From a virus, in IMG/VR virus record IMGVR_UViG_3300036768_001879, positions 3,441-67,440 of that record: a stretch of DNA of 64,000 nt, one strand, 5' to 3'. The position numbers and the translations under genes were made by a program. Below, one piece after another: positions 17,452 through 56,371 of this stretch (position 1 is the stretch's first letter; every line of letters begins with the position of its first letter). The notes under the pieces are model-generated. The model searched no databases. It was not told the DNA's origin and saw only the letters and a list, made by a program, of their open reading frames with translations.

Positions 17452-18350
17452 AGCCGGTTCACCTGTCCGGCATGGGGATGCTCGGCTGCGCAGCGGCGCT
17501 GGCGCTCGATGCTGCCGGGCGCGCCTTCACCTGGGACGATGCGGACGCGGTCAGCGCCTGGCCTGCAAGCAGCGGGCAGATTGTCACCGACGCGGACTCG
17601 CCGCAGCTGGAAGCCGCCCGCGCCGCGTGGGAGGCCCGCCAGACCGGCCTTGCCCCCGATGCGCCCGCTTACGCGCCGTTCCTGCGGCGCGCCGCCCGCT
17701 GGCTGCTGCTGAGCCGCGCGCCCGCCGCCGCCCGCGCCCAGGCGCGCCACGCCGCCGCCTGTGCAGGCAGGTTCTGGCGCGCTGGCGATGACGATCTCTT
17801 TCTGGATGTGCCCGGCTTTGTCGGCAGCGTCCGCGCCCGCTACGCGCACCTGCGGCGCACCGGCCCGCCCGCCGACGCCCGGCCCGTCACCGCGCACGGC
17901 TTTGCCCGCGCCCGCTGCTTCCTGTGGGGCTGGAGCGCCGCCTGCGCCGAACTCTGCCTGCCTGCCGGACTTGAAGCCGCCAGCCTCCCGCTGCCCCCAG
18001 CGCTGCATGTGCGCCCGCACCGCTTTATGAGCGCCTGGGTGGTGCCGCACGGTCGCGCCGGATACCTGATCGGCACGTCCTACGTGCGCCAGACCGAGCC
18101 GCGCCAGCCGCAGCACCCCGAACAACTCATCGCCCGCACGCTCGAACGGCTGGGCAGTTACGGCGTGCGCGTTGCGGCCACCGGCCCGGTGCGCTACGGC
18201 TGGCGCCCGCTGGCCGTCAGGGGCGAACCCCAGGTCACCGTCGCGCGCCACAACGGACACCTGATGCTGCCCGCGCTCGGCATGTACGGCGTCACGCTGA
18301 GTCCGCTGGCTGCAGCCGCGCTGCTCCGGGCGCTGGAGGATGAGCCGTGA
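17448..18350 (+). CDS. FAD-dependent oxidoreductase (DAO/glycine oxidase-like)
   Basis: N-terminal GMGMLG dinucleotide-binding motif, SAWPASSG, YGWRP, C-terminal GMYGVTLSP. Confidence 0.7.
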   Translation: MKPVHLSGMGMLGCAAALALDAAGRAFTWDDADAVSAWPASSGQIVTDADSPQLEAARAAWEARQTGLAPDAPAYAPFLRRAARWLLLSRAPAAARAQARHAAACAGRFWRAGDDDLFLDVPGFVGSVRARYAHLRRTGPPADARPVTAHGFARARCFLWGWSAACAELCLPAGLEAASLPLPPALHVRPHRFMSAWVVPHGRAGYLIGTSYVRQTEPRQPQHPEQLIARTLERLGSYGVRVAATGPVRYGWRPLAVRGEPQVTVARHNGHLMLPALGMYGVTLSPLAAAALLRALEDEP

Positions 18351-18898
18351 AAAGACTGATCGGTATTGGCGGCCCGCCCGGAGCCGGAAAAAGCCACCTG
18401 GTACAGTGCGCGCTGGCGGCGCTCGACCGCCACCGCTTTGTCATGCAGCAGGAAGGCACGATCCAGTACCTGCAACACCTGCGCCTGCCGCTGATCGTGC
18501 TGGGCAGCTACGCGCCCGGCGATGCCACGCCCGGCACCGACCGCCTGCATCTGTGCGTCCACCCGGAAGCCAAACGGTTCCTGGCGCGCCACGCCGCCGC
18601 CAGCGCCGATCTCTGCTGCCTGTTTGAAGGCGACCGCTTCTGCAATGAGCCGTTCCTTGCCGCCGCCGCCGCCTGGTTTGACGATGTGCGCCTGCTGCTG
18701 CTCGATGTGCCGCGCGCGGTGCGCGACCGCCGCTGCCAGACACGCGGTGCGCGGCAGGCTGAAACCTTTCTGCGAGGGCGGGAAACCAAATACCGCAATC
18801 TGGCCCGTCTGAGCTGCGCCGAAGTGCTGCCCAATTTCACCGCCGCGCACGCCGACGCCCTGCTTGAGCGCCTGCTGCGGCTGATTGAACTGCAATGA
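18347..18898 (+). CDS. P-loop kinase, 5-hydroxymethyluracil DNA kinase-like
   Basis: GGPPGAGKS Walker A, GTDRL, LFEGDRF, RCQTRG; context next to the AADT gene. Confidence 0.78.
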   Translation: MKRLIGIGGPPGAGKSHLVQCALAALDRHRFVMQQEGTIQYLQHLRLPLIVLGSYAPGDATPGTDRLHLCVHPEAKRFLARHAAASADLCCLFEGDRFCNEPFLAAAAAWFDDVRLLLLDVPRAVRDRRCQTRGARQAETFLRGRETKYRNLARLSCAEVLPNFTAAHADALLERLLRLIELQ

Positions 18899-19725
18899 AT
18901 TACCGGATTGTCATTCCGACACACCGCCGCGCCGCCACGCTGGGCGCGCGCACCCTGAAATGGCTGCGCGCCTGCGGCGTGCCCGATGCGCGCGTGACCC
19001 TGCTGGTCAGCGACGAAGCCGACGCCGAGGCTTATCGCGCGGCCTACCCGGACTGCTGCGTGCCGACGGTGCCGGCCTTTGACTGTCTGCGCGACAAACT
19101 GAACTACCTGCACCGCACGGCCCGGCCCGGCGAACGCGTGCTGGTCATCGAGGACGATCTGACCGGACTGCTCCGCAAGCGCGACAACCGCGCGCCGCTC
19201 ACGCACGACCTTGACGCGCTCGTGGCGGACGGCTTTGCCGCCTGCGAGCGCTACGGGACGGCGCTCTGGGGCGTCACGCCCACCAACAACGGACTCTTTA
19301 TGAAGGAGCGCGCCAGCGCCGAACTGCGCTTCTGTGTCGGGTACTGCTACGGCTTTGTCGGAACCGGCGACCCGCGCCTCGAAGTCACGCTCAACTTCAA
19401 ACACGACTATGAACGCACGCTGCTTTACTTCATTCGCTATGGCGCGGTGGCGCGCCTGAACTACGTGGGCGTTGAAACGCGCAGCTTCAGCGCGCCGGGC
19501 GGGCTTCAGGAGTATTCCGCGGAAGCCCGCCGCGCCGCCGAACTGGCCAGCAACGAATACCTGCTGCGCCGTTACCCGCATCTGGTGGCGCGCGCGGCGC
19601 GCCTGAATCGCACGCTCAACGCTTACACCGAACTTCGTCTGAATGCCCGCGCCAGCCGCGATACCGACTGGATGGCGCTGCAAAGGCTGCACGATGCTGC
19701 AAATGGTTTTCCCGGCTGCTGGTAA
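18895..19725 (+). CDS. TET/JBP-associated GT-A glycosyltransferase (TAGT/GREB1-like)
   Basis: IVIPTHRRA, VLVIEDDL, KHDYERTL, APGGLQ motifs. Confidence 0.78.
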   Translation: MNYRIVIPTHRRAATLGARTLKWLRACGVPDARVTLLVSDEADAEAYRAAYPDCCVPTVPAFDCLRDKLNYLHRTARPGERVLVIEDDLTGLLRKRDNRAPLTHDLDALVADGFAACERYGTALWGVTPTNNGLFMKERASAELRFCVGYCYGFVGTGDPRLEVTLNFKHDYERTLLYFIRYGAVARLNYVGVETRSFSAPGGLQEYSAEARRAAELASNEYLLRRYPHLVARAARLNRTLNAYTELRLNARASRDTDWMALQRLHDAANGFPGCW

Positions 19726-21478
19726 GGGCGAACGTTTCAGGCGCGCCGGTTGGCGCGACGACAAGCCCTTTATCCGGATCAATGGCCTGACGCTGCTTGA
19801 ACGCGCGCTGGCGGCTGCCGCCTGCCCGCCCGAGGTGCGCGTCCTGGTGGCGCTCGGCGACAAGTACCGCAACACGCCGCTCGTTGACCGGCTGGCCGCG
19901 CAATGGCGCTTTGAACCGGTCTTTGTGCCGCCCACCGGGAGCGTCGTTGACACGCTGCTGGCCTGCGCCAGCCGTCTTGACCCGGAACTGCCGCTCGTCT
20001 GCCACGACGCCGATATTCAGCTGCCGCTCGGCTGGCCGCTCCCGCCCGGCAACGGCCTCTGGTGGACTCCCGACGAAGGACCGCTGGCGCAGTACAGCTA
20101 CCTGCGCGCCGATCAGGCCGGGCGTCTGCTTGAGATCCGCGAAAAACAGCGCATCTCGGAGCGGGCCTGTTGCGGCGTCTACAAGTTTGAGCGCGCGGGC
20201 GAATTCCTTGCCGCCGCCCGCGCGACCACCGCGCCCGGCGAACGCTACCTCTCGCACGTCATTGCCCGGATGCTCGCTGCAGGCGCTACCTTTCACGCCT
20301 GGCCCGCTACCGGCTGGATCAACAACGGAACTCCGCAGCAGCTGGCCCTGAATGCCGCCGCCCGGCCCGCCCGGCCTCATACATTCTGCTTTGACCTCGA
20401 TGGCACGCTCTGCGGCCCGCCCGCCACGCCCGGCGATTACAGCACCTGCCGCCCGCTGGAACGCAACATCGCCTGGCTGCGCGCCCTGCACGCCGCCGGA
20501 CACCGGATCATCATTCATACAGCCCGCCGCATGCTCACGCATCGCGGCAATGTGCAGGCCGTCGTTGACGAGATTGGCGAACTGACGCGCCAGCAGCTGC
20601 GCGATTTCGGCGTGCCTTACCACGAACTCGTCTTCGGCAAGCCTTACGCCGATTTCTACGTTGATGACAAAGCCGTCAATGCCGAACTCGACCCGGAGCG
20701 CGAAACCGGCTTTTACGCCAGCACCGGCCTCGCGCCCAGGCACTTCAATCAGATCACCCAAACCGCGCGCGGGCTGCGCAAGACCGGCGACCTGCGCGGC
20801 GAACGGTTCTTCTATGAGAACTGCCCGGAGGACTTCAGGCCGTTTCTGCCCCTCATTCACGACGCCTCGGACGCGGCCATCGAAATGCAGCGCCTGCCCG
20901 GCCCCACTTACGCGCAGGCCCTCGTCAGCAATGAACTCGCGCCCGCTGACCTGCGCGCCGCGCTCGATGCGCTCGCCGTGCTGCATCGCCAGCCGGACGC
21001 GGGCGCTGACACCGCCAGCCTCTATCTGGAAAGGCTCGAAGCCCGCTACGCGCAGGCTCCGGCGCTCTACGCCGCCCTGCCACAGAGCGCCCGCGTCCTT
21101 GAAGACCTGCGCGCCTTCTTTGAAGGTTACGCCTTTGAGCCGCGCCGGATGCACGGCGACCCGGTGTTCGGCAACATTCTGTTCGGCCCGCGCTTCATTG
21201 ATCCGCGCGGGCGCGTCGGCGCGCAGCTGACGCTCTGCGGCGACCCGAACTATGATCGCGCCAAGCTCCTGCAGTCGCTCACTGGCTACGATGCCGTCCT
21301 GCTCGGACGCGCGCCAGCCCGGCGCACCGTTGAACGCCTGATTGCTGAACTCAATCCGCAGCCGGACGTCTGGCGCATTACGCTGGCGCATTACTTCTGT
21401 CTGCTGCCGCTGCACACCGAACTGCATCAGGAGTTCTGGCAGATCGCCCTTGAACTTCATCGCCAGTGGTTCGGCTGA
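19694..21478 (+). CDS. trifunctional nucleotidyltransferase - HAD phosphatase - APH/choline-kinase-like protein
   Basis: FPAAGKGERF..KPFI (NTase); CFDLDGTL, IHTAR, FGKPYADFYVDDK (HAD); HGDPVFGNIL..FIDPRG (kinase). Confidence 0.82.
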   Translation: MLQMVFPAAGKGERFRRAGWRDDKPFIRINGLTLLERALAAAACPPEVRVLVALGDKYRNTPLVDRLAAQWRFEPVFVPPTGSVVDTLLACASRLDPELPLVCHDADIQLPLGWPLPPGNGLWWTPDEGPLAQYSYLRADQAGRLLEIREKQRISERACCGVYKFERAGEFLAAARATTAPGERYLSHVIARMLAAGATFHAWPATGWINNGTPQQLALNAAARPARPHTFCFDLDGTLCGPPATPGDYSTCRPLERNIAWLRALHAAGHRIIIHTARRMLTHRGNVQAVVDEIGELTRQQLRDFGVPYHELVFGKPYADFYVDDKAVNAELDPERETGFYASTGLAPRHFNQITQTARGLRKTGDLRGERFFYENCPEDFRPFLPLIHDASDAAIEMQRLPGPTYAQALVSNELAPADLRAALDALAVLHRQPDAGADTASLYLERLEARYAQAPALYAALPQSARVLEDLRAFFEGYAFEPRRMHGDPVFGNILFGPRFIDPRGRVGAQLTLCGDPNYDRAKLLQSLTGYDAVLLGRAPARRTVERLIAELNPQPDVWRITLAHYFCLLPLHTELHQEFWQIALELHRQWFG

Positions 21479-25343: not shown

Positions 25344-28300
25344 ATGAATCCCGTTACCGTCAACGTTCAGAATGCTGCGCTGCCCGTCACCATTGGCGTG
25401 CCGTTTGCGCAGTCCGAAAACCTGCTCTCAACCGCCGCGCTGCGCGTCAGAAACCCGTCCGGCACGGTCATTGCGGGCAGCGGCGCGTTTGAAATCCTCG
25501 CCCGCTGGGGCGGGCTCAAAACCGACACCGCCAGGCCGATAATGATCGCGCTCGTGTCGTTCAAGCCTTCAACCGGCGTCGCCGGTAACTACACCATTGA
25601 CGACAGCAACGCCAGCTTCACGCCCGCGCCGATCACCGTCACCAGCAATCCAGGCGACTACCGCGTCCAGAACGGCGCGATTGATGTGCGGATCAGCAAG
25701 ACGTCCACCGATCTGCTCACCTCTTTTCAGATCAGCGGCAGCGAGCAGCTGGCTGCCGGATCAAAGCCGCGCCTGAACGCGGTGGCGTCGGCCAGCGCCA
25801 TCAGGACCACCGGCGTTGCTGACGTCGGCACCAACACGATCACCGTCACTTCGACCACCGGCCTGTCGGTCGGCACGCAGATCAGGCTCAAATGGGACGG
25901 CCCGCTGCTCTACATTCAGGGCGGCGCGGTCGTGGCGAGCGGCGATTACGGTTTCTACTCCAACTCGCTGACGCCCAAGCGCACCTTCTGGATCAATCGC
26001 GGCGGCGCAAATCAGGAATCGCTGACGGCGGATTTCGTCTATCCCGGCTCAGGCACCTCAGAGTGGTACTACGTCAGCGCGCCTGCCAATTCGCACAGCG
26101 CCGGCGAACTGGTCGAGGACAAGTCGCTGCTCGACGACTTCAACGCCAGCGGCGCTTACACAATCAACGCCATCAACGGCAACACGCTCACGCTCAATCG
26201 CAATCTCGGCGTGCGCGTGATCGAGAACACGCAGCTTGAAGTGCAGGGCGGCGGCACCGGCCCGGTGACTGCGCCCTTCCAGCCCGCCAGCTGCAGCGTT
26301 GAACGGCAAACCGATAATTACGTGGTCATCAGGCAGGTCGGCCACTTCACCAGCAACGTCAATCCGCTGGTTGAAGTCACCGTGCGCTGGCACATCTACA
26401 ACGGAATGTCGTGGCTGCGCGCGCAGGTGCGCCTGAACAACTACTCCGCCGACACCAGTGTCACTGCCACCGATGCGCCCTTTGATGAACTGCGCATGGA
26501 CGTGCCAACGGCCAGCGCCGCGTCGGGCAGCGATGCGGTGTCGGACAACGCTACAGCCGTCAGCCGCGTCAACGCCGGAACCACAACCGTGACGCTCTCG
26601 GCGGGTTCGTTCCAGATTTCGGTGCCGGAGTTTGCCGAGAAGTACCCGAAGAGCATCGCGGGCGATGCGGGCGGTTTTCACTTCGGCATCTTTCCGGCTG
26701 CGACAAATCAGCAGCTGCCCGGCGACCGCGCCATCTCGCACGAATTCTATCTCGGCAATTCAACCGCCACTCCAGCCACGCTCACCAGCCGCCCGACCAA
26801 CTGCGCGCTGCAGCCTTCGTATGTCGTCAACACGCAGGCGCACCGCGCCGTGACAACCGTGGCGCAGACTTACACGGCGGCGCAGTTCGGCGGCGACTCC
26901 GAGATGGCTGAAGCCGCCAACCGCAACGAGGATGCGCTGGCCGTGATCTATGACGTCTCAAAGGCGGTCGCCTACGGCTCGCAGCCCGCGCAGTCGGCAA
27001 AGGAGTTTCGCAATCGCGGCGAGTACGGCGACGGTTACGGCTGGACGATCTTCGGCACCTTCCCCTGGCAGGACAATCCGCGCTGCTACAACCACTACGA
27101 CACGCAGTTTCACACGCTCGTGCAGTATCTGCGCACGGGCGATCTGCGCGCGCTGCAGCTCGGCTCCGAGTGCGCCCGCTACATGGCCGATTACGGGATG
27201 ATCCAGTCGCGCATCTTCGGCGGCGGCAACCCGTACAACCAGTATCAGGGGCTGGCGCGCTTTGAGGATGAAGACCGGCGCGGGCCGGGCTTTCTCTCGC
27301 ACACGTGGCACGAAGGGCTGTGGCTCTACTGGGCCGTCACCGGCGATCAGGCGGTGTTTGACTCAGCCATGCTGACCATTGAAGGCAGGGATCAGACCGG
27401 CGCTACGCAACCCGGCTGCCTGAAGGCTGCCGACTGGTATCCGGCTGGCACGGGCCTCTATCCCGGCTCCTACTACGGACACGGCGCGAGCTTCAACATC
27501 TGGACGGGCAATGACGGCACGCGCTGGACCGGCTGGCCCATCCTCGGCCTGATGGCTGCTTATCGCTACACCGGGCGCAGCGACCTGCTCACGCTGGCCG
27601 GGCAGTATGCCAGCTGCTTCACGCAGACTGAAGCGGCGCAGGGCAATCACGGCTACTTCATTCAGGACGGCAGCTTCGCTACAGCCAATTCGGCTGATCC
27701 GCCGGGCAACGCGCCGAGCTTCATTCAGTACGGCTACACGCTGATCGGCATGATCGAGTACTGGAAGCAGACCGGCGACCAGACGGTGCGCGATTACATC
27801 AGCCGCGTCGGGCAGATGCTGCTCAAGGGCGATTCGCAGGCGGCGCAGGCGCGCAAGGATAACGCGCTGAGCGGCGGCGTGAGCTTCGCCGGACAGTATC
27901 TGGCTATTGAAGGCAACTACTTCTGGTGGCCGCTCGCGCAGACGACGCTCGCCTCCGGCATCAACAACACGGTGACTTCGATCACGCTCACCGACGCCTC
28001 GAAATTTCCGTTCTGGGGCTCAATCGCCATTGATGACGGCATCAACATCGAATACTGCACGGTCAGCAATCGCAGCGGCAACACGCTCACTGTCGCGCGC
28101 GGCAAGTACGGCTCGACGGCGCGCACGTGGAGCGCGGGCGTGACGGTCTACGTGCAGGCGTGGGACGGCGACGGGCCGACGAGCGGGCGCGCCATTGACT
28201 ACCTGCCCTGCATCAGCACGGCGGCCAAAATTACCGGCGACACCGGACTGCAGAACCTCGCCAAACGCATCTTCAAGGACACGGCCTTCTATTTCGGGCA

Positions 28301-30698
28301 GGGCGGGCCGCTGCTCAACCCGGCTGTGCGGTTCCCGATCAATCTGCGCACGGACGGTTTTCCGGGCAGTTCGATCAAGAACTGGGGGCAGCGCGCCTAC
28401 GGCGTCGAGCAGTATCTGGCCGATGTGCTGGCCAATCCGGTGCCGAGCCTTTCATCAATCAGCCCGAATACGAAGACAGCCGGTGATCCGCAGTTCACGC
28501 TCACGGTCAACGGGCTGAACTTCATCAGCACTTCAGCGGTGCGCGTCGGCGGCAGCGACCGCACGACGACCTTCATTTCAGCCACGCAGCTGCAGGCGAC
28601 GATTCCGGCCTCGGACGTTGCCGCGCCGGGCACGCTGCAGATTACGGTCTTCAATCCGGGGCCGGGCGGCGGCACCTCGAACGCCGTCACTCTGACGGTC
28701 AACGCGGGCGCGGGCGCGCCCACGATCAGCAGCCTGTCGCCTGCGTCGGCAGTGGCGGGCGGCGCGCAGTTCACGCTCACCGTCAATGGCGCGAATTACC
28801 AGAACGGCGCAGTAGTACGGTGGAACGGCTCGAACCGCACGACGACCTTTGTTTCGGCCACGCAGCTGCAGGCCACCATCCCTGCTACCGACATTGCTTC
28901 GCCCGGCTCGGCTACGGTCACGGTGCAGAACCCGGACGCACAGATCAGCAACGGCGCTACCTTTACGATCACCGCGCCAGCGCCCACGATCAGCAGCCTG
29001 TCGCCCGCGTCGGCTACAGCCGGTGGCGCGCAGTTCACGCTCACGGTCAACGGCTCGAACTTCCAGAGCGGCTCGACCGTGCGCTGGAACGGCTCAAACC
29101 GCACGACGACCTTTGTGTCCTCGACGCAGCTGCAGGCGACGATTCTGGCCGCTGATATTGCTTCGCCCGGTTCGGCTACGGTTACGGTTGTTAATCCCGA
29201 CAACCAGGTCAGCAACGGCGCGACGTTCACCATCAACAGCGCTTCCGCGCCCACGATCAGCAGCCTGTCGCCCGCGTCAGCGGTGGCGGGCGGCGCGCAG
29301 TTCACGCTCACCGTCAATGGCGCGAATTACCAGAACGGCGCAGTAGTACGGTGGAACGGCTCGAACCGCACGACGACCTTTGTTTCGGCCACGCAGCTGC
29401 AGGCCACCATCCCTGCTACTGACATTGCCTCGCCCGGCTCGGCTACGGTTACGGTGCAAAACCCGGACGCGCAGATCAGCAACGGCGCAACGTTCACCAT
29501 CAACGCCGCCAACAATCCGGTGCCGGTGCTCAACGGCATTTCGCCTTCAGCGGCTTCAGCGGGCGGGCCGCAGTTCACGCTGACGCTCAATGGGTCGAGT
29601 TTTATTTCTTCCAGTCAGGCCAGGTGGAACGGCCAGCCGCTGACCACGACCTTCGTTTCAACCACGCAGCTGACAGCGGTTGTTCCGGCTTCGCTGATCG
29701 CGGTGCCGGGCAGCGCGACCGTGACAGTCTTCAACCCAACGCCGGGCGGCGGAACGTCAGCCGGGCGGATATTCACGATTTCGGGAGGCCAGAGTATGCC
29801 GCCACCAGGGATCACTTCGCTCTCGCCTTCGCAGGTGGTCATCAACAGCGGTTCGTTTACGCTCGTGGTTACGGGCGGGGATTTCGTTTCGGGCATTGCG
29901 GGCAAGATTCAGAACGTGCAGCGCCCGACCACCTTCGTCAGCGAATCGCAGTGCAACATTGCGGTGCAGAACGCCGACATTCAGACGCTCGGCCCGCACG
30001 ATGTGGTCGTTGTCAATCCGGACGGTCAGGCGAGCAACGTCGTGCAGTTTCAGGTAGTCAATCCTTCAGGGCCGACAATCTACGGGCTGTCGCCGTCGAG
30101 CGCGCCGGAAGGCACGCAGGGGCTGACGCTCGTGGTCACGGGCGTCAACTTCGCTTCGGGCGCAGCGGTCAGAGTCAACGGGCAGGCGCGTTCGACGAGC
30201 TTCGTCAGCAGCACACAGCTGCGGGCGCAGCTCACAACAGCCGACCTGCAGACGCCCGGCGTGCTCAATATCACGGTCGCCAATCCGAACAACGACGTCT
30301 CTCCGGCTGTCGGCTTCACGGTGATTGCGGTCAACCGCTTTGCGCCCACGCCCACCATCAGGCCGAAACTTGAAACCATCTACCTTGAAACGGGCGACAA
30401 GTTCAGCGCCCGGCGCGTCTTCCGGCGCGGCTCGGACATTCTGGATCTGACCGGCTGCAAGGCCGAGTTCGAGGTCAAACGTTCGCGCACCGCGCCCGCC
30501 ACCGATGCGCCGCTCCTGCTGCTGACGTCGGACGCGGGCGACATTGCGCTCGACCTGAACGCGGGCAGCATGACGGTCAACGCCAGCGAACTGACCATCA
30601 ATCAGCAGCAGTGGCGGCTCGGGTGGTATCGCTGGCGCGTCATTACCGCTGCCGGCGAACACGTCACGCTGCTGCACGGCGAAATCTGGAGGCGCTGA
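25344..30698 (+). CDS. large virion adhesin: YetA/PcRGLX-like lyase-fold domain + 7 IPT/TIG repeats
   Basis: PVTIGVPF N-terminus, NHYD, SHTWHEGL, RWTGWP barrel motifs; seven P(T/S)ISSLSP..FTLTVNG.NF repeats; C-terminal DLTGC..adaptor domain. Confidence 0.7.
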   Translation: MNPVTVNVQNAALPVTIGVPFAQSENLLSTAALRVRNPSGTVIAGSGAFEILARWGGLKTDTARPIMIALVSFKPSTGVAGNYTIDDSNASFTPAPITVTSNPGDYRVQNGAIDVRISKTSTDLLTSFQISGSEQLAAGSKPRLNAVASASAIRTTGVADVGTNTITVTSTTGLSVGTQIRLKWDGPLLYIQGGAVVASGDYGFYSNSLTPKRTFWINRGGANQESLTADFVYPGSGTSEWYYVSAPANSHSAGELVEDKSLLDDFNASGAYTINAINGNTLTLNRNLGVRVIENTQLEVQGGGTGPVTAPFQPASCSVERQTDNYVVIRQVGHFTSNVNPLVEVTVRWHIYNGMSWLRAQVRLNNYSADTSVTATDAPFDELRMDVPTASAASGSDAVSDNATAVSRVNAGTTTVTLSAGSFQISVPEFAEKYPKSIAGDAGGFHFGIFPAATNQQLPGDRAISHEFYLGNSTATPATLTSRPTNCALQPSYVVNTQAHRAVTTVAQTYTAAQFGGDSEMAEAANRNEDALAVIYDVSKAVAYGSQPAQSAKEFRNRGEYGDGYGWTIFGTFPWQDNPRCYNHYDTQFHTLVQYLRTGDLRALQLGSECARYMADYGMIQSRIFGGGNPYNQYQGLARFEDEDRRGPGFLSHTWHEGLWLYWAVTGDQAVFDSAMLTIEGRDQTGATQPGCLKAADWYPAGTGLYPGSYYGHGASFNIWTGNDGTRWTGWPILGLMAAYRYTGRSDLLTLAGQYASCFTQTEAAQGNHGYFIQDGSFATANSADPPGNAPSFIQYGYTLIGMIEYWKQTGDQTVRDYISRVGQMLLKGDSQAAQARKDNALSGGVSFAGQYLAIEGNYFWWPLAQTTLASGINNTVTSITLTDASKFPFWGSIAIDDGINIEYCTVSNRSGNTLTVARGKYGSTARTWSAGVTVYVQAWDGDGPTSGRAIDYLPCISTAAKITGDTGLQNLAKRIFKDTAFYFGQGGPLLNPAVRFPINLRTDGFPGSSIKNWGQRAYGVEQYLADVLANPVPSLSSISPNTKTAGDPQFTLTVNGLNFISTSAVRVGGSDRTTTFISATQLQATIPASDVAAPGTLQITVFNPGPGGGTSNAVTLTVNAGAGAPTISSLSPASAVAGGAQFTLTVNGANYQNGAVVRWNGSNRTTTFVSATQLQATIPATDIASPGSATVTVQNPDAQISNGATFTITAPAPTISSLSPASATAGGAQFTLTVNGSNFQSGSTVRWNGSNRTTTFVSSTQLQATILAADIASPGSATVTVVNPDNQVSNGATFTINSASAPTISSLSPASAVAGGAQFTLTVNGANYQNGAVVRWNGSNRTTTFVSATQLQATIPATDIASPGSATVTVQNPDAQISNGATFTINAANNPVPVLNGISPSAASAGGPQFTLTLNGSSFISSSQARWNGQPLTTTFVSTTQLTAVVPASLIAVPGSATVTVFNPTPGGGTSAGRIFTISGGQSMPPPGITSLSPSQVVINSGSFTLVVTGGDFVSGIAGKIQNVQRPTTFVSESQCNIAVQNADIQTLGPHDVVVVNPDGQASNVVQFQVVNPSGPTIYGLSPSSAPEGTQGLTLVVTGVNFASGAAVRVNGQARSTSFVSSTQLRAQLTTADLQTPGVLNITVANPNNDVSPAVGFTVIAVNRFAPTPTIRPKLETIYLETGDKFSARRVFRRGSDILDLTGCKAEFEVKRSRTAPATDAPLLLLTSDAGDIALDLNAGSMTVNASELTINQQQWRLGWYRWRVITAAGEHVTLLHGEIWRR
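28716..29510 (+). repeat. three tandem ~265-bp IPT/TIG-coding repeats
   Basis: GCGCCCACGATCAGCAGCCTGTCGCC at 28716, 28980 and 29247; copies 1 and 3 nearly identical. Confidence 0.85.
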
Positions 30699-43679: not shown

Positions 43680-46600
43680 ATGGCTGAGGACATTGTTTTC
43701 GAGATCAGGTGGAACACGGGCGACGCCGAAGCCGGAGCGCGCCGCATGCAGTCGGCGGCGCACGCGCTCTATGAGGATCTCTCGCGCACGGCGGCTGGCG
43801 CGCGCCACCTGGGCGAATCGGCGCAGCGCGGGTTCACCGTGGCGGCGGACAGTCTCAGCCGGGCGCGCTCGTCGCTGGATCTCGACGCCGTGCTGTTTCA
43901 GCTCGATCAGCTGCGCATCGGGTTCTCACAGCTTGGGCGCGGTTCGCTGGGCGGGCTGCCGAACGTGCTCAAGGCATTTCAGCGCGCCGGGCAGGAAGCC
44001 GCAGCCGTCGTCAGGCAGTCCGGCTTCACTGAAGCCATCCGGCAGCTGGAACTGAACCTGACCGGGCTGGATGAGAAATTTGCCGCCCGCCCGCTCTTCA
44101 AACAGTTCCAGCAGAGCCTGCTTGAAGCGGCCACAAAGAGCGACGCCTTTGCCGCCGAACTGAAAGCCGCCTTCAAGGACCTCGGCGTTGAGATTGAACA
44201 GGCGCTCCTGCGCCCGGAGAAAGCCTTTGCCGATCTCGTCAAACGCATTGGCACCGTGCAGCCCGCGCTGGTGCGGGCGCGCTCGTCGCTGGGCAGCGTG
44301 ATTGAGGGCAGCGGCCCGCTGGCCGCGAACTTCCAGCAGAACGCCATTCTCGCCACCACGCAGGACACGCAGCGCGCGCGCCAGCTGCGCGCCGATTTTG
44401 CCGCGCTCGGCATAGACGTGAAGCAGGCGGCGCAGGGCGGCGAAGCCGCCTGGGCGCGTTTCCGCGCCGTGCTGCAGGAAGCCGAGAAATCAACCCTGCG
44501 GCTGCGCGGCCTCAATGTCATTCTCGGCACCGAATCCGACCAGTTGAGCGGAGCCTTCGGGCGAGCCGGACAGGCGCTCAACCGGCTCGACAACGAAGCG
44601 TCGGCAGCGGCGCGCGCCATGAGCGGCGTGAGCGGCGGAATGAGCGTGGCAACGGTGGCGGCAACCGTGCTGGGCGTGGCGGTGCTGGCGGCGGTGGCGG
44701 CGTTTGTGTCGCTCGGCGCTGAGGGCGTCAGGCTCGGCGCTGAACTCTTTCAGGTCAGCCAGCGCACCGGGCTGACGGTTGAAGCGTTGTCGCGGCTGCA
44801 GGCGGCGGGCGCTGATCTGAATAAAATCAGCGCCGCCTTTGACACCTTCAAGCAGAAGGCGCGCGAGGCGGCGCTCGAAAACGAACGGCTGCGCGCCGTC
44901 TTTACGGCGCTCGGCCTCGACGCGCGCGAGGCGGCGCGCCACCCGGCAGAAGCCTTTGCGCAGCTCGAACAGTCGCTGACGAAAATCACCGATGCGCAAA
45001 CCCGGCTGCGCGCGGCGCAGGCGCTGCTCGGCGCTTCGGGCGCTGAACTGCTGACCACCTTTATCGCCCTGCGCGAAAACAACGGCGCGCTCAACAGCGA
45101 ACTCGAACGCCTGGGCGTGATTACCAGCACCGGCACGGCGCGCCAGCTGAACGAGGTTCACAAGCAGGCGCGGCTGGTGGGCGCGCAGTTCGATGCGCTC
45201 AAAATCCAGATCGCCGCCGAACTCGGCCCGACCTTCATCGAAGTGCTGCAGAAGATGAAGGAGGCGCTCGTTGAACTCAAACCCACCATCGTTGAGATCG
45301 CCAATCTGCTCGGCCTGGCAGCCAAAGCCTTTGCGCTCATCAACAGCGGCCCGAACATTCCGAACCGGCTGGCCGACAGATTCTTCGACGACCGCAACGC
45401 TCCGCAACCCGCAGGCCCGCCCGTGTCGCGGCCATTCGATTTCGGAGTGCCGACGGCGGTGCAGAGCGGCGCGCGCAGGCCGGACATTGATCGCCGCCTG
45501 ATCGGCCCGCTCAACTTCCCTGCCCCGTCGCCCGCCGCATCCGCGCTGGCCTTCCGCAACGCTACGCGCGGCCAGACAGCGCCGGTGCAGCGCCCGGAGG
45601 TACAGGCAGCGGCTGACTTCTTCCGCGCGCAGGGCCGACAGCAGCAGCAACCGGCAGCCGCGTCCGACAACCGGCAGCTGAACCGCGCGCTGGACGCGCT
45701 CAACACGCGCCAGCGGGCGAGCCGCAACGCTGACGCCGAAGCGCGCGCCGCCGCGCGCGCCCGGCTCGAACTGACGCGAGCCGAACTCACAGCGGAAACC
45801 AGCCTGATCCGCGAACAGCTGCGCGCGCGCGAACTCGACCTGAAGGCCAGCTACGACGCCACGCTGATTACCACCGAGCAGTACTACGCGCAGAAGCTGG
45901 AACTTGAGCAGACCAGCCTGGCGCAGGAGATCCGCGAGAACCGCGCCGCCATTGCCGCCATTGACGCCGAGATTGCCGCCGCCACCGCGCGCCACGCCAG
46001 ACAGAGCGAACTGCTGCAGCTGCGGGCGCAGAAGGCGCGCCTGGAAGGCGAAGGCGCAGTGCTGCGCGAACGCCAGCTGGCGCTGCCCGCCGCCAATGAC
46101 GCTGCCCGGCGCGCTGCCCAGGAGCAGGAACGCCGCACGGTTGAGCAGATCAGGATCGCGTACCTGGAACTGACCGGCGCAGAGCAGCAGGCCTTCGACC
46201 GGCGACTGGCCGAGGAATACGCTGAAGCCGTCAAAACGGCGGCGCAGGCCGGACGCCGCGACATCCTCTCGCTGATCGAAAAGCTCCAGACGCTGCGTTC
46301 GGCGCACTTCGCGCTGGCGCAGCAGATCAAACAGAGCCAGTTGCGCTTCGACGTGCGGCAGTCGCAGCTGAACGTCATCGAGGAAACCATTCGCGGCGCG
46401 CAGACGCGCGGGCTGCTCGACGACACCGAAGCCACCGATGCGGCCATCATTGCGCGCCGCCGTTTCCGCGAGGAACTGCTGGCTGAAGCCGCCGTGCAGC
46501 AGCAGCTGCTCCAGCAGAAGGTGCGCCTGGGCGGGTCGGAAGCTGAAAGCGCGCAGCGCGACCTGCTGCAGATCAACGAGCGCATTGCAGCGCTGCGCAA

Positions 46601-49600
46601 CCTCGGCGCTGAACTGACCAGCCAGGAACGCATTCAGCAGCAGCTTTCCGACAATCAGGTGTTCCGGCAGGACAGAGCCAACCGGCTGTTCCTGCAGCAT
46701 CTGGCCGAACAGAAGAGTCTGACGCAGGCCGTGGCCGACGCGCAGATAAAGGCTTACGAAACGTTTGTCGGCGCGCTGGAAAAGGGCATTGACAAACTCA
46801 CGTCAAAGCTCGGACTGTTCGGCGAGGTGGTGGCTGATCTGCTCAAGACCATCACGCGCAACCTGATTACGCGCGTGCTGGCGCCGGCAGCGGGCAGCGG
46901 TGGATTCGAGGGTCCCGGCCAGCCCGCTGCCGGTGGCGCGCTCGGCCTGCTCGGTTCGCTGCTCTTTGGCGGGCAGGCCGGTGCGCCCGCGCAGGCGGCG
47001 CAGGTCGGCCCGCTCGGCGTGCTGCTCGGCGCGCTCGGCCTGGGCAATGCCGCTGGCGCGCGCACGCCGCCCTTTGTGCCGCAGCAGAGCGCCGTGAATC
47101 CGGCGCTGCTGCTGCCGCTGCTGCTGCCGCAGGCGGCAGGCGCAGGCGGCGCGCAGGCTGGCGGCAGCACCCTGAGCGCCATCGCCGGGCTGCTTGAGTT
47201 CGCACAGGCGCGGCAGGCGGCGGGCGTCCAGGCTCCGCTCGGTCAGGCGTTCAGCGAAGGCGGGCAGATTCTGGCCGGGCTGACCGGCACGGGCGCGCAG
47301 GCGTTCAAAAAACTCAGCGGAATCATTCCTGGCGCAGACACGGCTGCTGGCGGGCTGCAGACGCTGACCGACCTGTTCCTGAACCAGTCGCGGCTCAGTC
47401 AGGCGGCGCGCACGCCGCCTTTTGTGGCGCAGGCCGGGACGGCGGCAGCGGGCGCGGCGGCAAAGGGCTCGTTGTTGCAGGGGCTGGCTCCGCTGGCTCC
47501 GCTGCTGGGGCTTTCGCTGGGGTCGCAACTGGGCGGGCAGAGCGGACTGGGGCGCGTGCTGGGCGGCGCGGGCGGACTGCTGCTGGGCGGTTCGGTGCTG
47601 GCGGCGGCAGCGCCGGGCGCAATCACCGGGCTGCTCGGAGCCATTGGCTTTGGCGGCACCAACAGCGCCATTCTCGGCAGCGCCATTGCCGGGTTCCTGA
47701 CCAATCCGATCACGATTCTGGCCGGCATCGGGCTGCTGATCGGCAGCTTCTTCCTGGGCCGCGCCAAACAGCGGCGGCAGGATGAGCGCAACGCCGACGC
47801 CATCTGGAAGGCTGAAGCCGACCGGCTGGCCGAACTGACAAGGCTCGTCAACGCTGACCGCATTGACGGCGCGCAGGCGCTGGCTGAAGCCGCGCAGCTG
47901 CGCCAGCAGACGATTGCCGCGCTCAATCAGATCAAAACGAAATCGGTCAGAGAGTCGCGGCTGAAGAACCAGCTGGCCGACGTGGATCGCGTCTACGTCG
48001 TGCCGCTCAAGGAAGCCGTCGAGCGGCAGCAGAAGCGCAAGGGCATCAACGATCTGCTGCTGCCCACGTTTGCCGGCGGCGGGTTTACGGGCCGCGTGCC
48101 GGGCGTCTTTGACGGCGCGGACGACAAACTGATCCGCGTGACGGGCAACGAAGTCGTGCTCAATCCGCACCAGCAGGCCACGCTGGCCGATCTGCTGCTG
48201 ACCGCCGCCCGCCAGCGCGCGCTGCCCGCCGTGCGCGAGCGTCAGGCTCAGCGCGCCAGCCAGCCAGCAGCCAGCCGACAGCAGGACGCCGCCGCCGCGC
48301 CAGCCGATGCGCGCACCGTGGAGCGCGCGCTGCGCCGCGTGCTTGAAGAACCTGCCAGCCCGGCTGCGCGCCGCGTGATGCCTCTCGCGCTCAGCACGAG
48401 CGCGCGGCGCTTTGCTGAAGGCGGCTTCACGGGCGCAGCCGGTTCAGGCCCGGCGCAGGCCGCGCCCGCCAGCGCGCCCGCGCCAGCCCGCCCGGCTGCG
48501 CTGGCCGGACTGCTGCTGACGGCGGTGCGCAACCACCTGCTGCCAGCCGGTCAGGCCGCAACGGGCGGCGCGTCAGGTGCGACGGCGCAAGCCGGACAAC
48601 CGGCGAGCAGTGCGCGGGCGCAGCGCAGCGAGCGGTCAGCGACGCAGCCTGCCGCGCCTGAAGTTGAACATCCGACGCCGCAACGCGCCTTCGCTGCCGC
48701 TGCAACGCGCGACCGCGCGCCGTTGCGGTCAGTTGTCAACCCGAACGCAGTCGCGCCAGCAGCGCCCGCGCAAACCGCCGCCCGCGAACACCTGAACGCT
48801 GCGGCTGCTTCGCCCGCCGTGCGGGTCAGGCAGCAGCGATTTGCGCCGCTGACGGAACCCGAGCCGGGCGTTGAAGCCTTCAGCCGCCAGAACGCAGTCA
48901 TCCGGGCGCAACAGCCGACAGCGCCAGCCGCCGTGACGGTCGCTTCAGCCGGGTCGCTGCGGGCAGCCGCGCCCGCCAGCGCCATCAGCCGGATTGCCGC
49001 GCCGCAGCAGCCACCGGCGATTGCACAGCGCGCCGCCCTGCCGCGCCTTGCAGAGCGCAGCCTGAGCCCGCCGCCGCTGCTGACTGCTGCAAGCTTCAAC
49101 GCGCCCGCCCGGCCTGCTGCAGCGAGCCTGCGGCGGTCAGCGCCCGCTGCGCCGCCCGTGCTGGCGGCAGCGCAGCAGGAGCGGCAGGAAAGTGAGCGCG
49201 CCGCGACCGCGCGTCTGCAGCCGCTGGCGGGCATTGAAAGAGAGCGCCGCGCCGCCGCCGCGCCGCCAGCAGCGGGCGCGCTTCAGCCGGGCCGGGCGCA
49301 GGCCGCGGAAGACCGCAGCTTCCTGAGCGCCAGCCGCGACGAATTGCGCACCACCGTTCAGTTTCAGCAGGTTGCCCGGCTCACGGGCGCGTTTGCGCGC
49401 ACCGAAGCGCAGATTGCCAGCCCGCCGCGCCGCCCGAGCGAACCGCCCGCCGCCTTTGTGCGCAGCCTGCTGCAGCAGGCACCGACGAGCCGCCTGGCGC
49501 AGTCAGCCGGGCGGGCAGGTGAAGCGGCGGCGCTGGCGCGCCTGACGCCTGATGCGCAACGCGAACGCGCGCTGCCGCGCCGCGCGGGCGGCGGGCTGGC

Positions 49601-50006
49601 GGTGCCGGGCGTGTTCACCGGTGCTGACGATCTGCTGATTCGCGTCAGCGGCAACGAACTGATCCTGAACGCGCACCAGCAGGCAACGCTCTCCGCAATG
49701 CTGCTTGAAGCGGCGCAGCGGCGCGCCCTGCCGTCAACGCCCGCGCCCGCGACAGCGCTCATCCCGGAACAGCCGCGCGCCAGCGCCAGCGCCAGCGTTT
49801 CAGCCGCCACGCCCACCGTGCAGCCGATCACAGTAGTCGTCAGCAACAGCTTCGAGCTTGGCCTGTCCGATCAGACGAAGATCGTCACCAACGCCTTCAA
49901 CACCGCCGACGGGCGGCGCGCGGCGGTGCGCGTGATTCGCCGCGACGTGCGACGTCAGGGCGCATCCGGGCTGGCCGGAGATATTGAATCGGCCCTGTCG
50001 GGCTGA
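43680..50006 (+). CDS. tape measure protein
   Basis: 2108 aa, Ala/Gln-rich helices, SQRTGLTVEALSRL motif, Gly-rich TM region, FAGGG motif. Confidence 0.85.
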   Translation: MAEDIVFEIRWNTGDAEAGARRMQSAAHALYEDLSRTAAGARHLGESAQRGFTVAADSLSRARSSLDLDAVLFQLDQLRIGFSQLGRGSLGGLPNVLKAFQRAGQEAAAVVRQSGFTEAIRQLELNLTGLDEKFAARPLFKQFQQSLLEAATKSDAFAAELKAAFKDLGVEIEQALLRPEKAFADLVKRIGTVQPALVRARSSLGSVIEGSGPLAANFQQNAILATTQDTQRARQLRADFAALGIDVKQAAQGGEAAWARFRAVLQEAEKSTLRLRGLNVILGTESDQLSGAFGRAGQALNRLDNEASAAARAMSGVSGGMSVATVAATVLGVAVLAAVAAFVSLGAEGVRLGAELFQVSQRTGLTVEALSRLQAAGADLNKISAAFDTFKQKAREAALENERLRAVFTALGLDAREAARHPAEAFAQLEQSLTKITDAQTRLRAAQALLGASGAELLTTFIALRENNGALNSELERLGVITSTGTARQLNEVHKQARLVGAQFDALKIQIAAELGPTFIEVLQKMKEALVELKPTIVEIANLLGLAAKAFALINSGPNIPNRLADRFFDDRNAPQPAGPPVSRPFDFGVPTAVQSGARRPDIDRRLIGPLNFPAPSPAASALAFRNATRGQTAPVQRPEVQAAADFFRAQGRQQQQPAAASDNRQLNRALDALNTRQRASRNADAEARAAARARLELTRAELTAETSLIREQLRARELDLKASYDATLITTEQYYAQKLELEQTSLAQEIRENRAAIAAIDAEIAAATARHARQSELLQLRAQKARLEGEGAVLRERQLALPAANDAARRAAQEQERRTVEQIRIAYLELTGAEQQAFDRRLAEEYAEAVKTAAQAGRRDILSLIEKLQTLRSAHFALAQQIKQSQLRFDVRQSQLNVIEETIRGAQTRGLLDDTEATDAAIIARRRFREELLAEAAVQQQLLQQKVRLGGSEAESAQRDLLQINERIAALRNLGAELTSQERIQQQLSDNQVFRQDRANRLFLQHLAEQKSLTQAVADAQIKAYETFVGALEKGIDKLTSKLGLFGEVVADLLKTITRNLITRVLAPAAGSGGFEGPGQPAAGGALGLLGSLLFGGQAGAPAQAAQVGPLGVLLGALGLGNAAGARTPPFVPQQSAVNPALLLPLLLPQAAGAGGAQAGGSTLSAIAGLLEFAQARQAAGVQAPLGQAFSEGGQILAGLTGTGAQAFKKLSGIIPGADTAAGGLQTLTDLFLNQSRLSQAARTPPFVAQAGTAAAGAAAKGSLLQGLAPLAPLLGLSLGSQLGGQSGLGRVLGGAGGLLLGGSVLAAAAPGAITGLLGAIGFGGTNSAILGSAIAGFLTNPITILAGIGLLIGSFFLGRAKQRRQDERNADAIWKAEADRLAELTRLVNADRIDGAQALAEAAQLRQQTIAALNQIKTKSVRESRLKNQLADVDRVYVVPLKEAVERQQKRKGINDLLLPTFAGGGFTGRVPGVFDGADDKLIRVTGNEVVLNPHQQATLADLLLTAARQRALPAVRERQAQRASQPAASRQQDAAAAPADARTVERALRRVLEEPASPAARRVMPLALSTSARRFAEGGFTGAAGSGPAQAAPASAPAPARPAALAGLLLTAVRNHLLPAGQAATGGASGATAQAGQPASSARAQRSERSATQPAAPEVEHPTPQRAFAAAATRDRAPLRSVVNPNAVAPAAPAQTAAREHLNAAAASPAVRVRQQRFAPLTEPEPGVEAFSRQNAVIRAQQPTAPAAVTVASAGSLRAAAPASAISRIAAPQQPPAIAQRAALPRLAERSLSPPPLLTAASFNAPARPAAASLRRSAPAAPPVLAAAQQERQESERAATARLQPLAGIERERRAAAAPPAAGALQPGRAQAAEDRSFLSASRDELRTTVQFQQVARLTGAFARTEAQIASPPRRPSEPPAAFVRSLLQQAPTSRLAQSAGRAGEAAALARLTPDAQRERALPRRAGGGLAVPGVFTGADDLLIRVSGNELILNAHQQATLSAMLLEAAQRRALPSTPAPATALIPEQPRASASASVSAATPTVQPITVVVSNSFELGLSDQTKIVTNAFNTADGRRAAVRVIRRDVRRQGASGLAGDIESALSG

Positions 50007-54801: not shown

Positions 54802-55029
54802 TCAGGCGGCGCGCGGCCCGCGCTTGCGCCCTTTGATCCAGCCGCGCGGCGGCGGATTGAAGGTGTGGATGAAATCCTCGGGGATCATCCAGTATGAGCC
54901 GCGCGCGTCCTGCATCAGTCGTGCGCCAGGGATGCGCCCGCGCCGCAGATGGAGTTTGAAGCCCGCCAGCGACAACCGGCTGCCGGTGCGCTCGCACCAC
55001 AGCCGGTGTGCCTCGCGGACGGTCAGCAT
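54802..55029 (-). CDS. small MerR/Xis-like HTH DNA-binding protein, candidate repressor
   Basis: MLTVREA..LRRGRIPGA..YWMIP pattern, basic tail; divergent from the early operon; alternative start 55056. Confidence 0.65.
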   Translation of the reverse strand: MLTVREAHRLWCERTGSRLSLAGFKLHLRRGRIPGARLMQDARGSYWMIPEDFIHTFNPPPRGWIKGRKRGPRAA

Positions 55030-55064
55030 TCGCGTTGCAGAGTTCACGTTGTGCATACTCCGAT

Positions 55065-55190
55065 AAAATAATCGCTCAGTCAATTTATTCAAAATTCCGC
55101 ACTCGTAACACATTGATTTTTCAGCACTTATCGGAAAAAATTACAGACCGGTAATTTTATCTTGACATAAAATTACAGGCCGATTATTTT
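55065..55190. promoter_or_regulatory. divergent switch: rightward sigma70 promoter and three 22-bp operators
   Basis: TTGACA(55162)-N17-TATTTT(55185); operators AAAATTACAGACCGGTAATTTT (55137), AAAATTACAGGCCGATTATTTT (55169), AAAATAATCGCTCAGTCAATTT (55065). Confidence 0.75.
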
Positions 55191-55196
55191 ATTTGC

Positions 55197-55856
55197 ACGC
55201 TGAGAGCGAAACCCGAAGCGGATTAATAAGTAGTTCCGGCGTCGCCGAATCGTGCGATTTCGGCGGTTGTTTGAAAATCGAATCTGATCGGGAGATGGCC
55301 GTAGGGAAACCCGGCGACGATGGGATTAACAAGTAGCGCGCGAAACCGCAGGACGGAATAACAAGTAACGCAGCGAAACCCGGAGCCGGAAGTAACAAGT
55401 ACCCGCCGACGCTGTAAAACCAGCACACGGATGGCAGAAGGGTCGAGACAGTTGTGAGAACTGGCGCACCTGATCGGGCGTGAGAGTGATCGCGCGACGC
55501 AGAATCGGCGCGAATCGTTCGTGGCGACCCCACGGGCGCAGAGATCGGGGCTGTAACCCGAAGGGAACGGAAAACGCAGGAACGGCGGCAGCGAAACCGC
55601 GAAGCGGAATAACAAGTAGCCAGCCCGCGACGACCCGAAGTGAAAAGCGTTTCAAGTTCCCCGCATAAACCCGTCAGCGAAATCCCGGTCAGACGAAACC
55701 CGAAGTGGATTAACAAGTAGTCGGAGGGAACCTAACAAGTAGCTGACTGGCTGCTGTGGCGCGAAACCCGAAGGCGAAACCGCGAAGCGGATTAACAAGT
55801 AGCCAGGGACGTAAGAAGTAGCGCCGCAGGAAGGCGAAACGCGCCGCGTGCGCGTC
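55197..55856 (+). ncRNA. ~660-nt non-coding leader RNA with a hairpin-TAACAAGTAG repeat array
   Basis: About 9 copies of GAAA-CC..GG hairpin-A(T/A)TAACAAGTAG with covarying stems; bounded by the promoter and the hammerhead cleavage site. Confidence 0.65.
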
Positions 55857-55895
55857 TGTCCGCGCCGGGCAAGCGGACACTGATGAGCCAGCCCG
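55833..55895 (+). ncRNA. type II hammerhead ribozyme with pseudoknot
   Basis: GGC-GAAA-stem III-GUC(55856)-stem I UGUCCGC/GCGGACA-CUGAUGA-GCC; loop I CGGGC pairs with downstream GCCCG. Confidence 0.88.
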
Positions 55896-55945
55896 AACAA
55901 CCGCAGGCGAAGATTCTTCGCCCGCCTTACGAAAAGGAGATTCGC

Positions 55946-56371
55946 ATGAAACCATCACGCACCACTCCGAACACCGCCGCGACTCAGAACGAAGAACTGG
56001 AAGCCCGCCGCGCACGCGCGCACATGCTCGCCGCGCGGGAAGCCGAAGACTTCCGCAAAGCTTTCGATACCGACCCGGTTTACGCCATCAAGTGGCACGG
56101 CGACTCTCTGTTGCGCCGCTCATTTGAGGCGCGCCTGACCGATGACGTTATCAGCAGGCTGCTCACGGTCGAGCCTGCCGCCCGCGTGCGCGCGCTGGAG
56201 CAGATGCGGCGGACCGCGTTCAACTCCTTCCTCGCTGAAGTCACCGCGAGCGGGCCGGGCACGATCAATCAGATGGTTTCCCGCCTCGACTTCGAGGCGC
56301 TGGGCGCGGCGCTCAGAGCGCACGGCCTGTTCGATGAACTGGCCAGCCTGCTCGCTGAGCGCCCGGAATAA
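55946..56371 (+). CDS. hypothetical early protein
   Basis: AAGGAG RBS before ATG 55946. Confidence 0.6.
   Translation: MKPSRTTPNTAATQNEELEARRARAHMLAAREAEDFRKAFDTDPVYAIKWHGDSLLRRSFEARLTDDVISRLLTVEPAARVRALEQMRRTAFNSFLAEVTASGPGTINQMVSRLDFEALGAALRAHGLFDELASLLAERPE

Follow-up and report, generated by a model that had tools for sequence, protein, structure and literature searches.

A putative type II hammerhead ribozyme between a repeat-bearing leader and the probable early operon of a temperate phage

The window analysed here, a stretch of 64,000 nucleotides, makes up most of a provirus record of IMG/VR, and a tyrosine integrase is found at one end of that record. According to Pfam and PHROGs matches, the + strand genes of the window comprise replication (PrimPol-helicase), DNA-hypermodification, lysis, head and tail genes, and they end at 54276. 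The hypermodification cluster (15764-21478) is a run of genes for a Tet/JBP oxygenase, an amino acid:DNA transferase (ADDT), a P-loop nucleotide kinase, a TET-associated glycosyltransferase and a nucleotidyltransferase/APH-like protein. In addition, a protein of 1784 aa, in which six or more IPT/TIG domains were recognised, is encoded before the portal gene (25344-30698), and a 2108-aa tape-measure-like protein is encoded at 43680-50006.

Beyond this gene block, a small divergent gene is followed by an AT-rich region with palindromic boxes and a promoter, and then by a leader, a hammerhead ribozyme and the first gene of an operon. The features are as follows, L120 being the contig of a related phage that is compared with the window below:

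54354-86: terminator after the + strand genes that end at 54276
54802..55056, - strand: P0001, a small divergent gene of 84 aa, with a homolog of 49% identity beside the leader in L120
55137..55192, no strand assigned: 24-bp palindromic box (AAAATTACAGNCCGNTAATTTTAT), present twice, the copies flanking and overlapping the promoter
55162..55190, + strand: sigma-70-like promoter TTGACA-17-TATTTT, with 10/12 consensus matches
55198..55856, + strand: ORF-free, purine-rich leader RNA of ~660 nt, which the ribozyme is predicted to set free
55832..55897, + strand: type II hammerhead ribozyme with a pseudoknot between loop I and the 3' tail, recognised by a match to Rfam RF02276 and by direct reading; predicted cleavage after C55856
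55857..55945, + strand: 5' UTR remaining on the mRNA after the predicted cleavage, with the stem I hairpin at its extreme 5' end, a second hairpin at 55906-22 and the Shine-Dalgarno sequence AAGGAG at 55934-39
55946..56371, + strand: P0002, the first gene of the operon, an orphan of 141 aa; ATG 55946 stands six bases after AAGGAG 55934-39

P0001 itself has no match in Pfam, PHROG, NCBIfam or PDB. Its family comprises three proteins in a large protein database, and one distant member (E 7.6e-4) carries the HTH_17 domain PF12728; P0001 may be an HTH regulator. Three copies of the 24-bp palindromic box stand around the early promoter (55137-55192 and 55065-55088), where the L120 sequence differs, and the boxes are likely operators. 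The promoter of L120, TTGACG-17-TATTAT, is at the matching place. In the window, transcription would start near 55197.

A search of the large protein database with P0002 returned the protein itself only, none of 21 candidate viral-contig stretches was related to it, and it has no homolog in the whole record of the L120 phage (G001). After P0002 come several unknown genes and then genes for an AAA ATPase, DUF3150 and a Rad52/Erf-like annealing protein. This gene content points to an early operon of recombination/replication type.

Immediately before the 5' UTR of this operon, direct reading of the sequence at 55830-55900 gives all parts of a hammerhead ribozyme:

GGC 55833-35 / GCC 55887-89, + strand: stem II, three pairs, open, made by the 5' and 3' ends
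55836-39, + strand: GAAA, by direct reading
A55839-U55855 plus CGCGC/GCGCG, + strand: stem III, 6 bp, with a 5-nt loop at 55845-49
55854-56, + strand: cleavage triplet GUC, a cleavable NUH triplet ending at C55856
UGUCCGC 55857-63 / GCGGACA 55873-79, + strand: stem I, 7 bp, with a 9-nt loop
55880-86, + strand: core CUGAUGA, by direct reading
CGGGC 55866-70 (loop I) / GCCCG 55891-95, + strand: pseudoknot, 5 bp, its 3' partner starting one base past stem II

Around the core, loops cap stems I and III and stem II is left open, as in the type II topology. The acceptance rule given in the Methods of PMC3088659 allows no mispair beside the core (10.1-11.1, 1.1-2.1 and A15.1-U16.1), and the three pairs flanking the core here, G55887-C55835, U55857-A55879 and A55839-U55855, are all clean. 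A type II pseudoknot is expected to join loop I to the nucleotides directly 3' of stem II by at least four pairs, and here it has five. The preliminary description of this DNA had placed stems I, II and III, the GAAA, the GUC triplet and the core at these same positions, and our reading confirmed each of them; its loop I pseudoknot is equally borne out, CGGGC being complementary to GCCCG and the corresponding segments pairing in L120 too. Moreover, it had located the ATG of an ORF starting at 55883 inside the catalytic core, and ATG 55883-85 does fall within CUGAUGA, the real start being ATG 55946. The ORF 55883..56371, a 162-aa form, shares its frame with ATG 55946, and the large protein database holds the 141-aa P0002 that starts at 55946 but not the 162-aa form.

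The Rfam search for type II hammerheads that had been proposed as a check agrees with this reading. Hammerhead_II (RF02276) aligns in full (positions 1-66 of 66) to 55832-55897 of the + strand and reaches 45.0 bits against a gathering score of 37; E is 5.5e-6 when the whole window is searched on both strands and 1e-7 in a search of 1.2 kb. Thus the assignment to type II made from the letters stands, with the family score above its cut-off and all defining sequence features in place. RF02276 is the sole Rfam family that reaches its cut-off within the window, and the whole record of 67,440 nt (G000) contains one hammerhead.

A second copy of the element was found through the AAA ATPase of the operon. 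With this gene as an anchor, 23 viral loci and 80 of 206 genome loci were fetched, and the same arrangement occurs only in L120, whose ATPase is 73% identical to that of the window. The L120 hammerhead lies at L120:4129-4203, in the same place as in the window. It has one extra A between core and stem II, and the Rfam hammerhead model did not report it even at E<=10. A covariance model, R1, was built from seven type II hammerheads (alignment A4) with the L120 copy left out; on that copy it scores 33.1 bits with E 1.3e-6, and the next best match in 15.5 kb reaches 8.5 bits. The plain minimum free energy (MFE) fold of the L120 copy is the hammerhead three-way junction.

Changes between the two copies preserve pairing. 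In stem I, the seven pairs show three double changes, one single change and no broken pair. Stem III is entirely rewritten in L120 yet paired, with eight pairs against six in the window when A15.1-U16.1 is counted. The pseudoknot of L120 (4169-73 / 4193-97) again has 5 bp; it lies one position off, and an A-U pair stands in place of G55868-C55893. Since stems I and III have been rewritten without loss of pairing and the pseudoknot has been kept through this replacement of G-C by A-U, we take the window ribozyme to be a real type II hammerhead. When 18 distinct type II hammerheads were aligned to R1 (alignment A5), pairing was seen in 90.5% of cells and double changes in 12 of 16 pairs; none of 500 shuffles reaches the observed covariation on any measure. 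A scan with R1 at E<=0.01 covered 97 sources (1.26 Mb), seven of the 103 loci (L128, L185, L192, L205, L219, L228 and L231) being omitted, and returned three hammerheads, those of the window, L139 and L120.

In view of these observations, the element is very probably a functional type II hammerhead, and the RNA that it processes would be the primary transcript of the early operon of a temperate phage; its self-cleavage is predicted from sequence-level criteria. Some features weigh on the other side, among them the failure of the Rfam model to report the L120 copy and the plain MFE fold of the window copy, which is an alternative GC-rich pairing. In one construct of PMC3088659 an extra stem II pair lowered activity, and the three pairs of stem II in the window are for this reason counted against activity. 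The same paper reports that pseudoknot mutants were inactive and compensatory mutants active again, and that the pseudoknot is needed for fast cleavage.

The surroundings of the two ribozymes were compared across whole records. Most genes of the two phages are shared, with 55-78% amino acid identity, among them the PrimPol-helicase (63% identity). Between the two, the late (structural) block has opposite orientations with respect to the early module, and the first genes after the ribozyme are unrelated. The layout of promoter, leader and ribozyme is the same in both phages, each with a promoter-like site and an ORF-free leader, and the distance from the predicted cleavage site to the AUG is 89 nt in the window and 79 nt in L120. 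Because the first genes behind the ribozyme are not shared and the late regions are inverted, the conserved unit consists of P0001, the promoter, the leader and the ribozyme.

Searches for further members of this unit covered several collections. DNA-pattern scans of viral contigs for the leader gave, among the matches listed, just the L120 contig, chance matches in AT-rich or coding DNA, and unrelated hammerheads, and a scan of metagenomes gave four stretches, none of them related. A search anchored on the P0001 alignment yielded one relative among 49 stretches, again the L120 contig. At the AAA ATPase loci (23 viral and 80 of 206 genome loci), the repeated motif of the leader, TAACAAGTAG, was found in L120 only. 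A pattern search through 401 genomes of the phylum of the best genome match returned four single matches, against seven for a reversed-pattern control, and no clustered copies; blastn against 50,697 phage records gave no match. None of the sequencing runs listed as containing this DNA is an RNA run, and contigs carrying the locus in four DNA runs were identical pieces, without variants. As a single relative was found, the conservation of the arrangement rests on two sequences.

The leader itself is distinctive in composition and content. Its longest + strand ORF has 62 codons, and 33 stops are spread over the three frames. Purines make up 62% of it in the window, with 12.7% T/U, and 61% in L120, against about 51-52% purine in the surrounding genomes. 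No + strand terminator was found between promoter and ribozyme. The leaders of the two phages are 76% identical and differ by indels of 20, 10, 13 and 1 nt, which are not multiples of three. Apart from the hammerhead, a search of the leader (55198-55831) with Rfam 15 at E<=10 gave just one miRNA match of 17 bits, which is at chance level, and the L120 leader gave none. A repeated motif and two helices were located in it:

55224..55821, + strand: TAACAAGTAG nine times with no more than one mismatch, at start positions 55224, 55327, 55359, 55393, 55610, 55711, 55733, 55793 and 55812, from the motif count
55283-92 / 55469-78, + strand: long-range helix of 10 bp around motif copies 2-4, with two double and three single changes relative to L120 and pairing kept
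55754-60 / 55823-29, + strand: helix of 7 bp around the last two motif copies, abutting the ribozyme, with one double and two single changes relative to L120

The nine copies of TAACAAGTAG compare with 0.20 expected in the window, a 45-fold excess that none of 100 shuffles reaches, and all are on the + strand; L120 has six (L120 3606-4118) against 0.17 expected. In its strict form, TAAMAAGTAS, the motif is confined to the leader in both whole records, with 6 of 6 occurrences in G000 and 5 of 5 in G001 and none on the reverse strand. Most copies stand in a module of ~30 nt that consists of GCGAAACC, 5-12 variable nucleotides and GGAWUAANAAGUAGC (GGAWT in the DNA). Copies start 103, 32, 34, 217, 101, 22, 60 and 19 nt apart, and the difference in copy number between the window and L120, nine against six, comes from whole modules gained or lost.

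The helix 55283-92/55469-78 contains G-U pairs and is therefore specific to the + strand. Helix covariation exceeds the controls only weakly: the same count was attained in three of 60 column shuffles, and three helices, though shorter ones, were obtained from the reverse complement. A densely folded leader was considered and rejected, as its MFE z is +0.82 on the + strand and +0.77 on the - strand, and the two-sequence consensus has -83.6 kcal/mol against -220 for the window alone. Likewise, a minus-strand gene opposite the leader (55189-55716, with ORFs of 175 and 130 aa) was dropped, only 34-53 residues being alignable to L120; these ORFs are due to the T-poor + strand, and minus-strand frames are broken between the phages by the indels given above. 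Mimicry of 16S rRNA by the module was also rejected as unsupported; shuffled sequences did as well as or better than its best local alignments to E. coli 16S (L272) in 25 and 82 of 200 cases. From the two sequences we infer that the leader is a transcript whose functional part may be its repeated, largely single-stranded modules.

These features bear on what the ribozyme is for. One reading refines the processing explanation and does not replace it: the ribozyme is real, and its job is to release a functional noncoding RNA, the leader being a trans-acting, multivalent decoy or scaffold to which an RNA-binding factor of the host or the phage would bind. We hold this as a reasonable possibility, tentatively. 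The 45-fold excess of TAACAAGTAG, limited to the transcribed strand and to the leader, is consistent with it, and so is the conservation of the leader, which at 76% of nucleotides is as conserved as the best-conserved proteins of the phages (55-78% of amino acids), when the next genes are not shared. Copy number has changed from nine to six, or the reverse, by gain or loss of whole modules, the purine-rich and U-poor strand bias exists in both phages, compensatory changes preserve the two helices around motif copies, which include G-U pairs, and the released RNA would have a hairpin at its 3' end. However, the leader fold is not more stable than shuffles (z +0.82), no predicted fold is common to the modules, and the covariation of the helices, with two members, is weakly above controls (3/60 column shuffles). 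A more specific form of the proposal is more doubtful: the hammerhead would be the 3'-end-forming device of a class of phage noncoding RNAs of ~0.6 kb, in which six to nine modules (GCGAAACC, a variable stretch and GGAWUAANAAGUAGC) are held in loops by a few long-range helices and together make a multivalent decoy, acting in trans, for an RNA-binding protein or a defence nuclease of the host.

The repeats might instead act as DNA, as origin iterons, a partition site or a regulator array, and the ribozyme would then merely trim a useless leader. Direct 10-bp repeats with pairs 19-22 bp apart in both phages would suit such a role, as would the PrimPol-helicase that both encode (63% identity). 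We consider this improbable, because all 15 copies have one orientation, that of the transcribed strand, the strand-asymmetric composition continues between the copies, and the conserved helices need G-U pairs, which make sense only as + strand RNA. Moreover, G001 lacks counterparts of the ParB-like and OmpR-type proteins that the window encodes.

Regulated cutting is a further alternative. Here the ribozyme would be a switch, in which alternative pairing with its GC-rich surroundings or with GGCGAAAC-like starts of upstream modules controls cleavage and so sets early expression. In its plain MFE fold, the 68-nt stretch of the window adopts a different, GC-rich pairing with -26.8 kcal/mol (z -0.11), slightly more stable than the hammerhead fold, which without the pseudoknot has -24.0 kcal/mol and is thus 2.8 kcal/mol worse. 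In addition, the 11-mer GAAGGCGAAAC is present twice, at 55769 and at the 5' end of the ribozyme at 55830, and regulated hammerheads are raised as a possibility in Perreault et al. (PMC3088659). We nevertheless judge a switch very unlikely, since the MFE structure of the L120 copy is the hammerhead, a conserved competitor helix was not found, and the leader matches no ligand-binding family in Rfam.

The last alternative, a chance look-alike, a decayed ribozyme or coding sequence read from ATG 55883, is extremely improbable: the ORF 55883..56371 is open and helices arise readily in GC-rich DNA, but the match (E 5.5e-6) is above the family cut-off and covaries with L120, no Shine-Dalgarno sequence precedes 55883 whereas AAGGAG precedes ATG 55946, the database protein starts at 55946, and L120 has no homologous ORF there.

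Returning to processing of the early transcript by a working hammerhead, we propose the following course of events. Transcription would run from the sigma-70-like promoter, starting near 55197, through the ~660-nt untranslated leader and into the ribozyme. With stems I and III formed and the 3' strand of stem II transcribed, the pseudoknot between loop I and the 3' tail would align stems I and II side by side, and the RNA would cut itself after C55856. One product would be the leader RNA, with the stem III hairpin and a 2',3'-cyclic phosphate as its 3' end. The other would be the polycistronic mRNA, whose 5'-hydroxyl would stand where the stem I hairpin begins, with AUG 55946 following 89 nt further on. 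Both the chemistry of these ends and the stability of the products are predicted from what is established for hammerheads. Type II topology caps both new ends with hairpins, so both products should be fairly stable, and their expected persistence would fit a leader with a function of its own. Use of the promoter, cleavage in vivo and a separate life of the leader after release are thus steps of a predicted pathway.

Translational activation is not part of this proposal. Unmasking of the ribosome-binding site by cleavage was considered and rejected, because the pairing of the Shine-Dalgarno sequence, and hence its predicted accessibility in folding, is unchanged by cleavage and no anti-Shine-Dalgarno sequence occurs in the leader.

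According to Perreault et al. (2011, PMC3088659), type II hammerheads whose loop I forms a pseudoknot with the 3' tail are frequent in bacteria and prophages. The window element shares with the RF02276 family the core, the topology, a pseudoknot of at least four pairs and the phage or prophage setting. Nothing essential differs; stem II has three pairs where the family often has two, and stem I has seven pairs and a 9-nt loop. In the haloviruses HF1 and HF2, an early polycistronic transcript has a hammerhead ahead of its first gene, and the 5' end of that transcript was mapped at most 3 nt from the cleavage site (PMC3088659). This hammerhead, HHphage, resembles that of the window: both are single and belong to the 5' leader of an early polycistronic mRNA, a short way before its first gene. 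However, HHphage has an atypical core, is 13 nt from the start codon and belongs to archaeal viruses (PMC3088659), whereas the window copy has a canonical core, a distance of 89 nt and a repeat-bearing leader of ~660 nt.

Hammerheads in prophage operons can also be clustered and flank single genes (PMC3088659). Among uncultured phages, we observed two to five type II hammerheads within about 3 kb in L139 (11533-11949), L247, L257, L260 and L264, several of which start with the same GGAAGGCGAAAC, directly after a promoter-like sequence and before a ribosome-binding site. These clustered ribozymes belong to the same family as that of the window and share with it the processing of mRNA in phage operons as described in PMC3088659; they separate genes, whereas the window phage has one ribozyme only, which separates a leader from an operon. 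In L125, which comes from a related phage, a type-P5 twister ribozyme at 6555-6611 (50.9 bits against a cut-off of 37.6) stands ~400 nt upstream of an AAA ATPase gene (44% identical) and represents a different ribozyme class in the same operon type.

Cutting between a leader element and the first early gene has a parallel in the N leader of phage lambda, where processing by RNase III uncouples nutL from the N ribosome-binding site. The cut in lambda is made by a host protein nuclease, and nut is single and of known function, whereas in the window a ribozyme would make the cut. Multi-site decoy RNAs are represented by CsrB/RsmZ-type sponges and by ToxI-type antitoxin repeat arrays, including phage pseudo-ToxI, and the window leader resembles them in carrying many copies of one short motif on one noncoding RNA. 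The resemblance does not extend further. A CsrA sponge was rejected, since GGA is not enriched (in the window 19 occurrences compare with 15.4 +/- 2.8, and in L120 19 with 14.7 +/- 2.8). An array of the type III antitoxin (ToxI-like) kind, in which near-identical units of fixed length follow one another in tandem beside an endoribonuclease toxin gene, was also rejected, the units being diverged and irregularly spaced (19-217 nt) and the downstream ORFs having no Pfam or PHROG toxin match, so that no toxin-like gene was recognised next to the leader.

The ribozyme is an ordinary example of the type II family, one clean addition to a family catalogued since 2011 (PMC3088659), and the leader that it would cut off is the part worth a bench test. 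The roles of hammerheads in bacteria and phages are still largely unsettled. Here, a solitary ribozyme between a conserved leader built of repeats and an operon whose first genes are not conserved poses a direct question, namely whether the phage gains a free leader, a protected mRNA with a 5'-hydroxyl, or both. If the leader is a stand-alone RNA, it would represent a new class of phage RNA with a built-in processing signal. Moreover, if the more specific proposal of a noncoding RNA class were true, one phage hammerhead would be given a concrete job, the making of a stable noncoding RNA and an mRNA with a 5'-hydroxyl from a single promoter.
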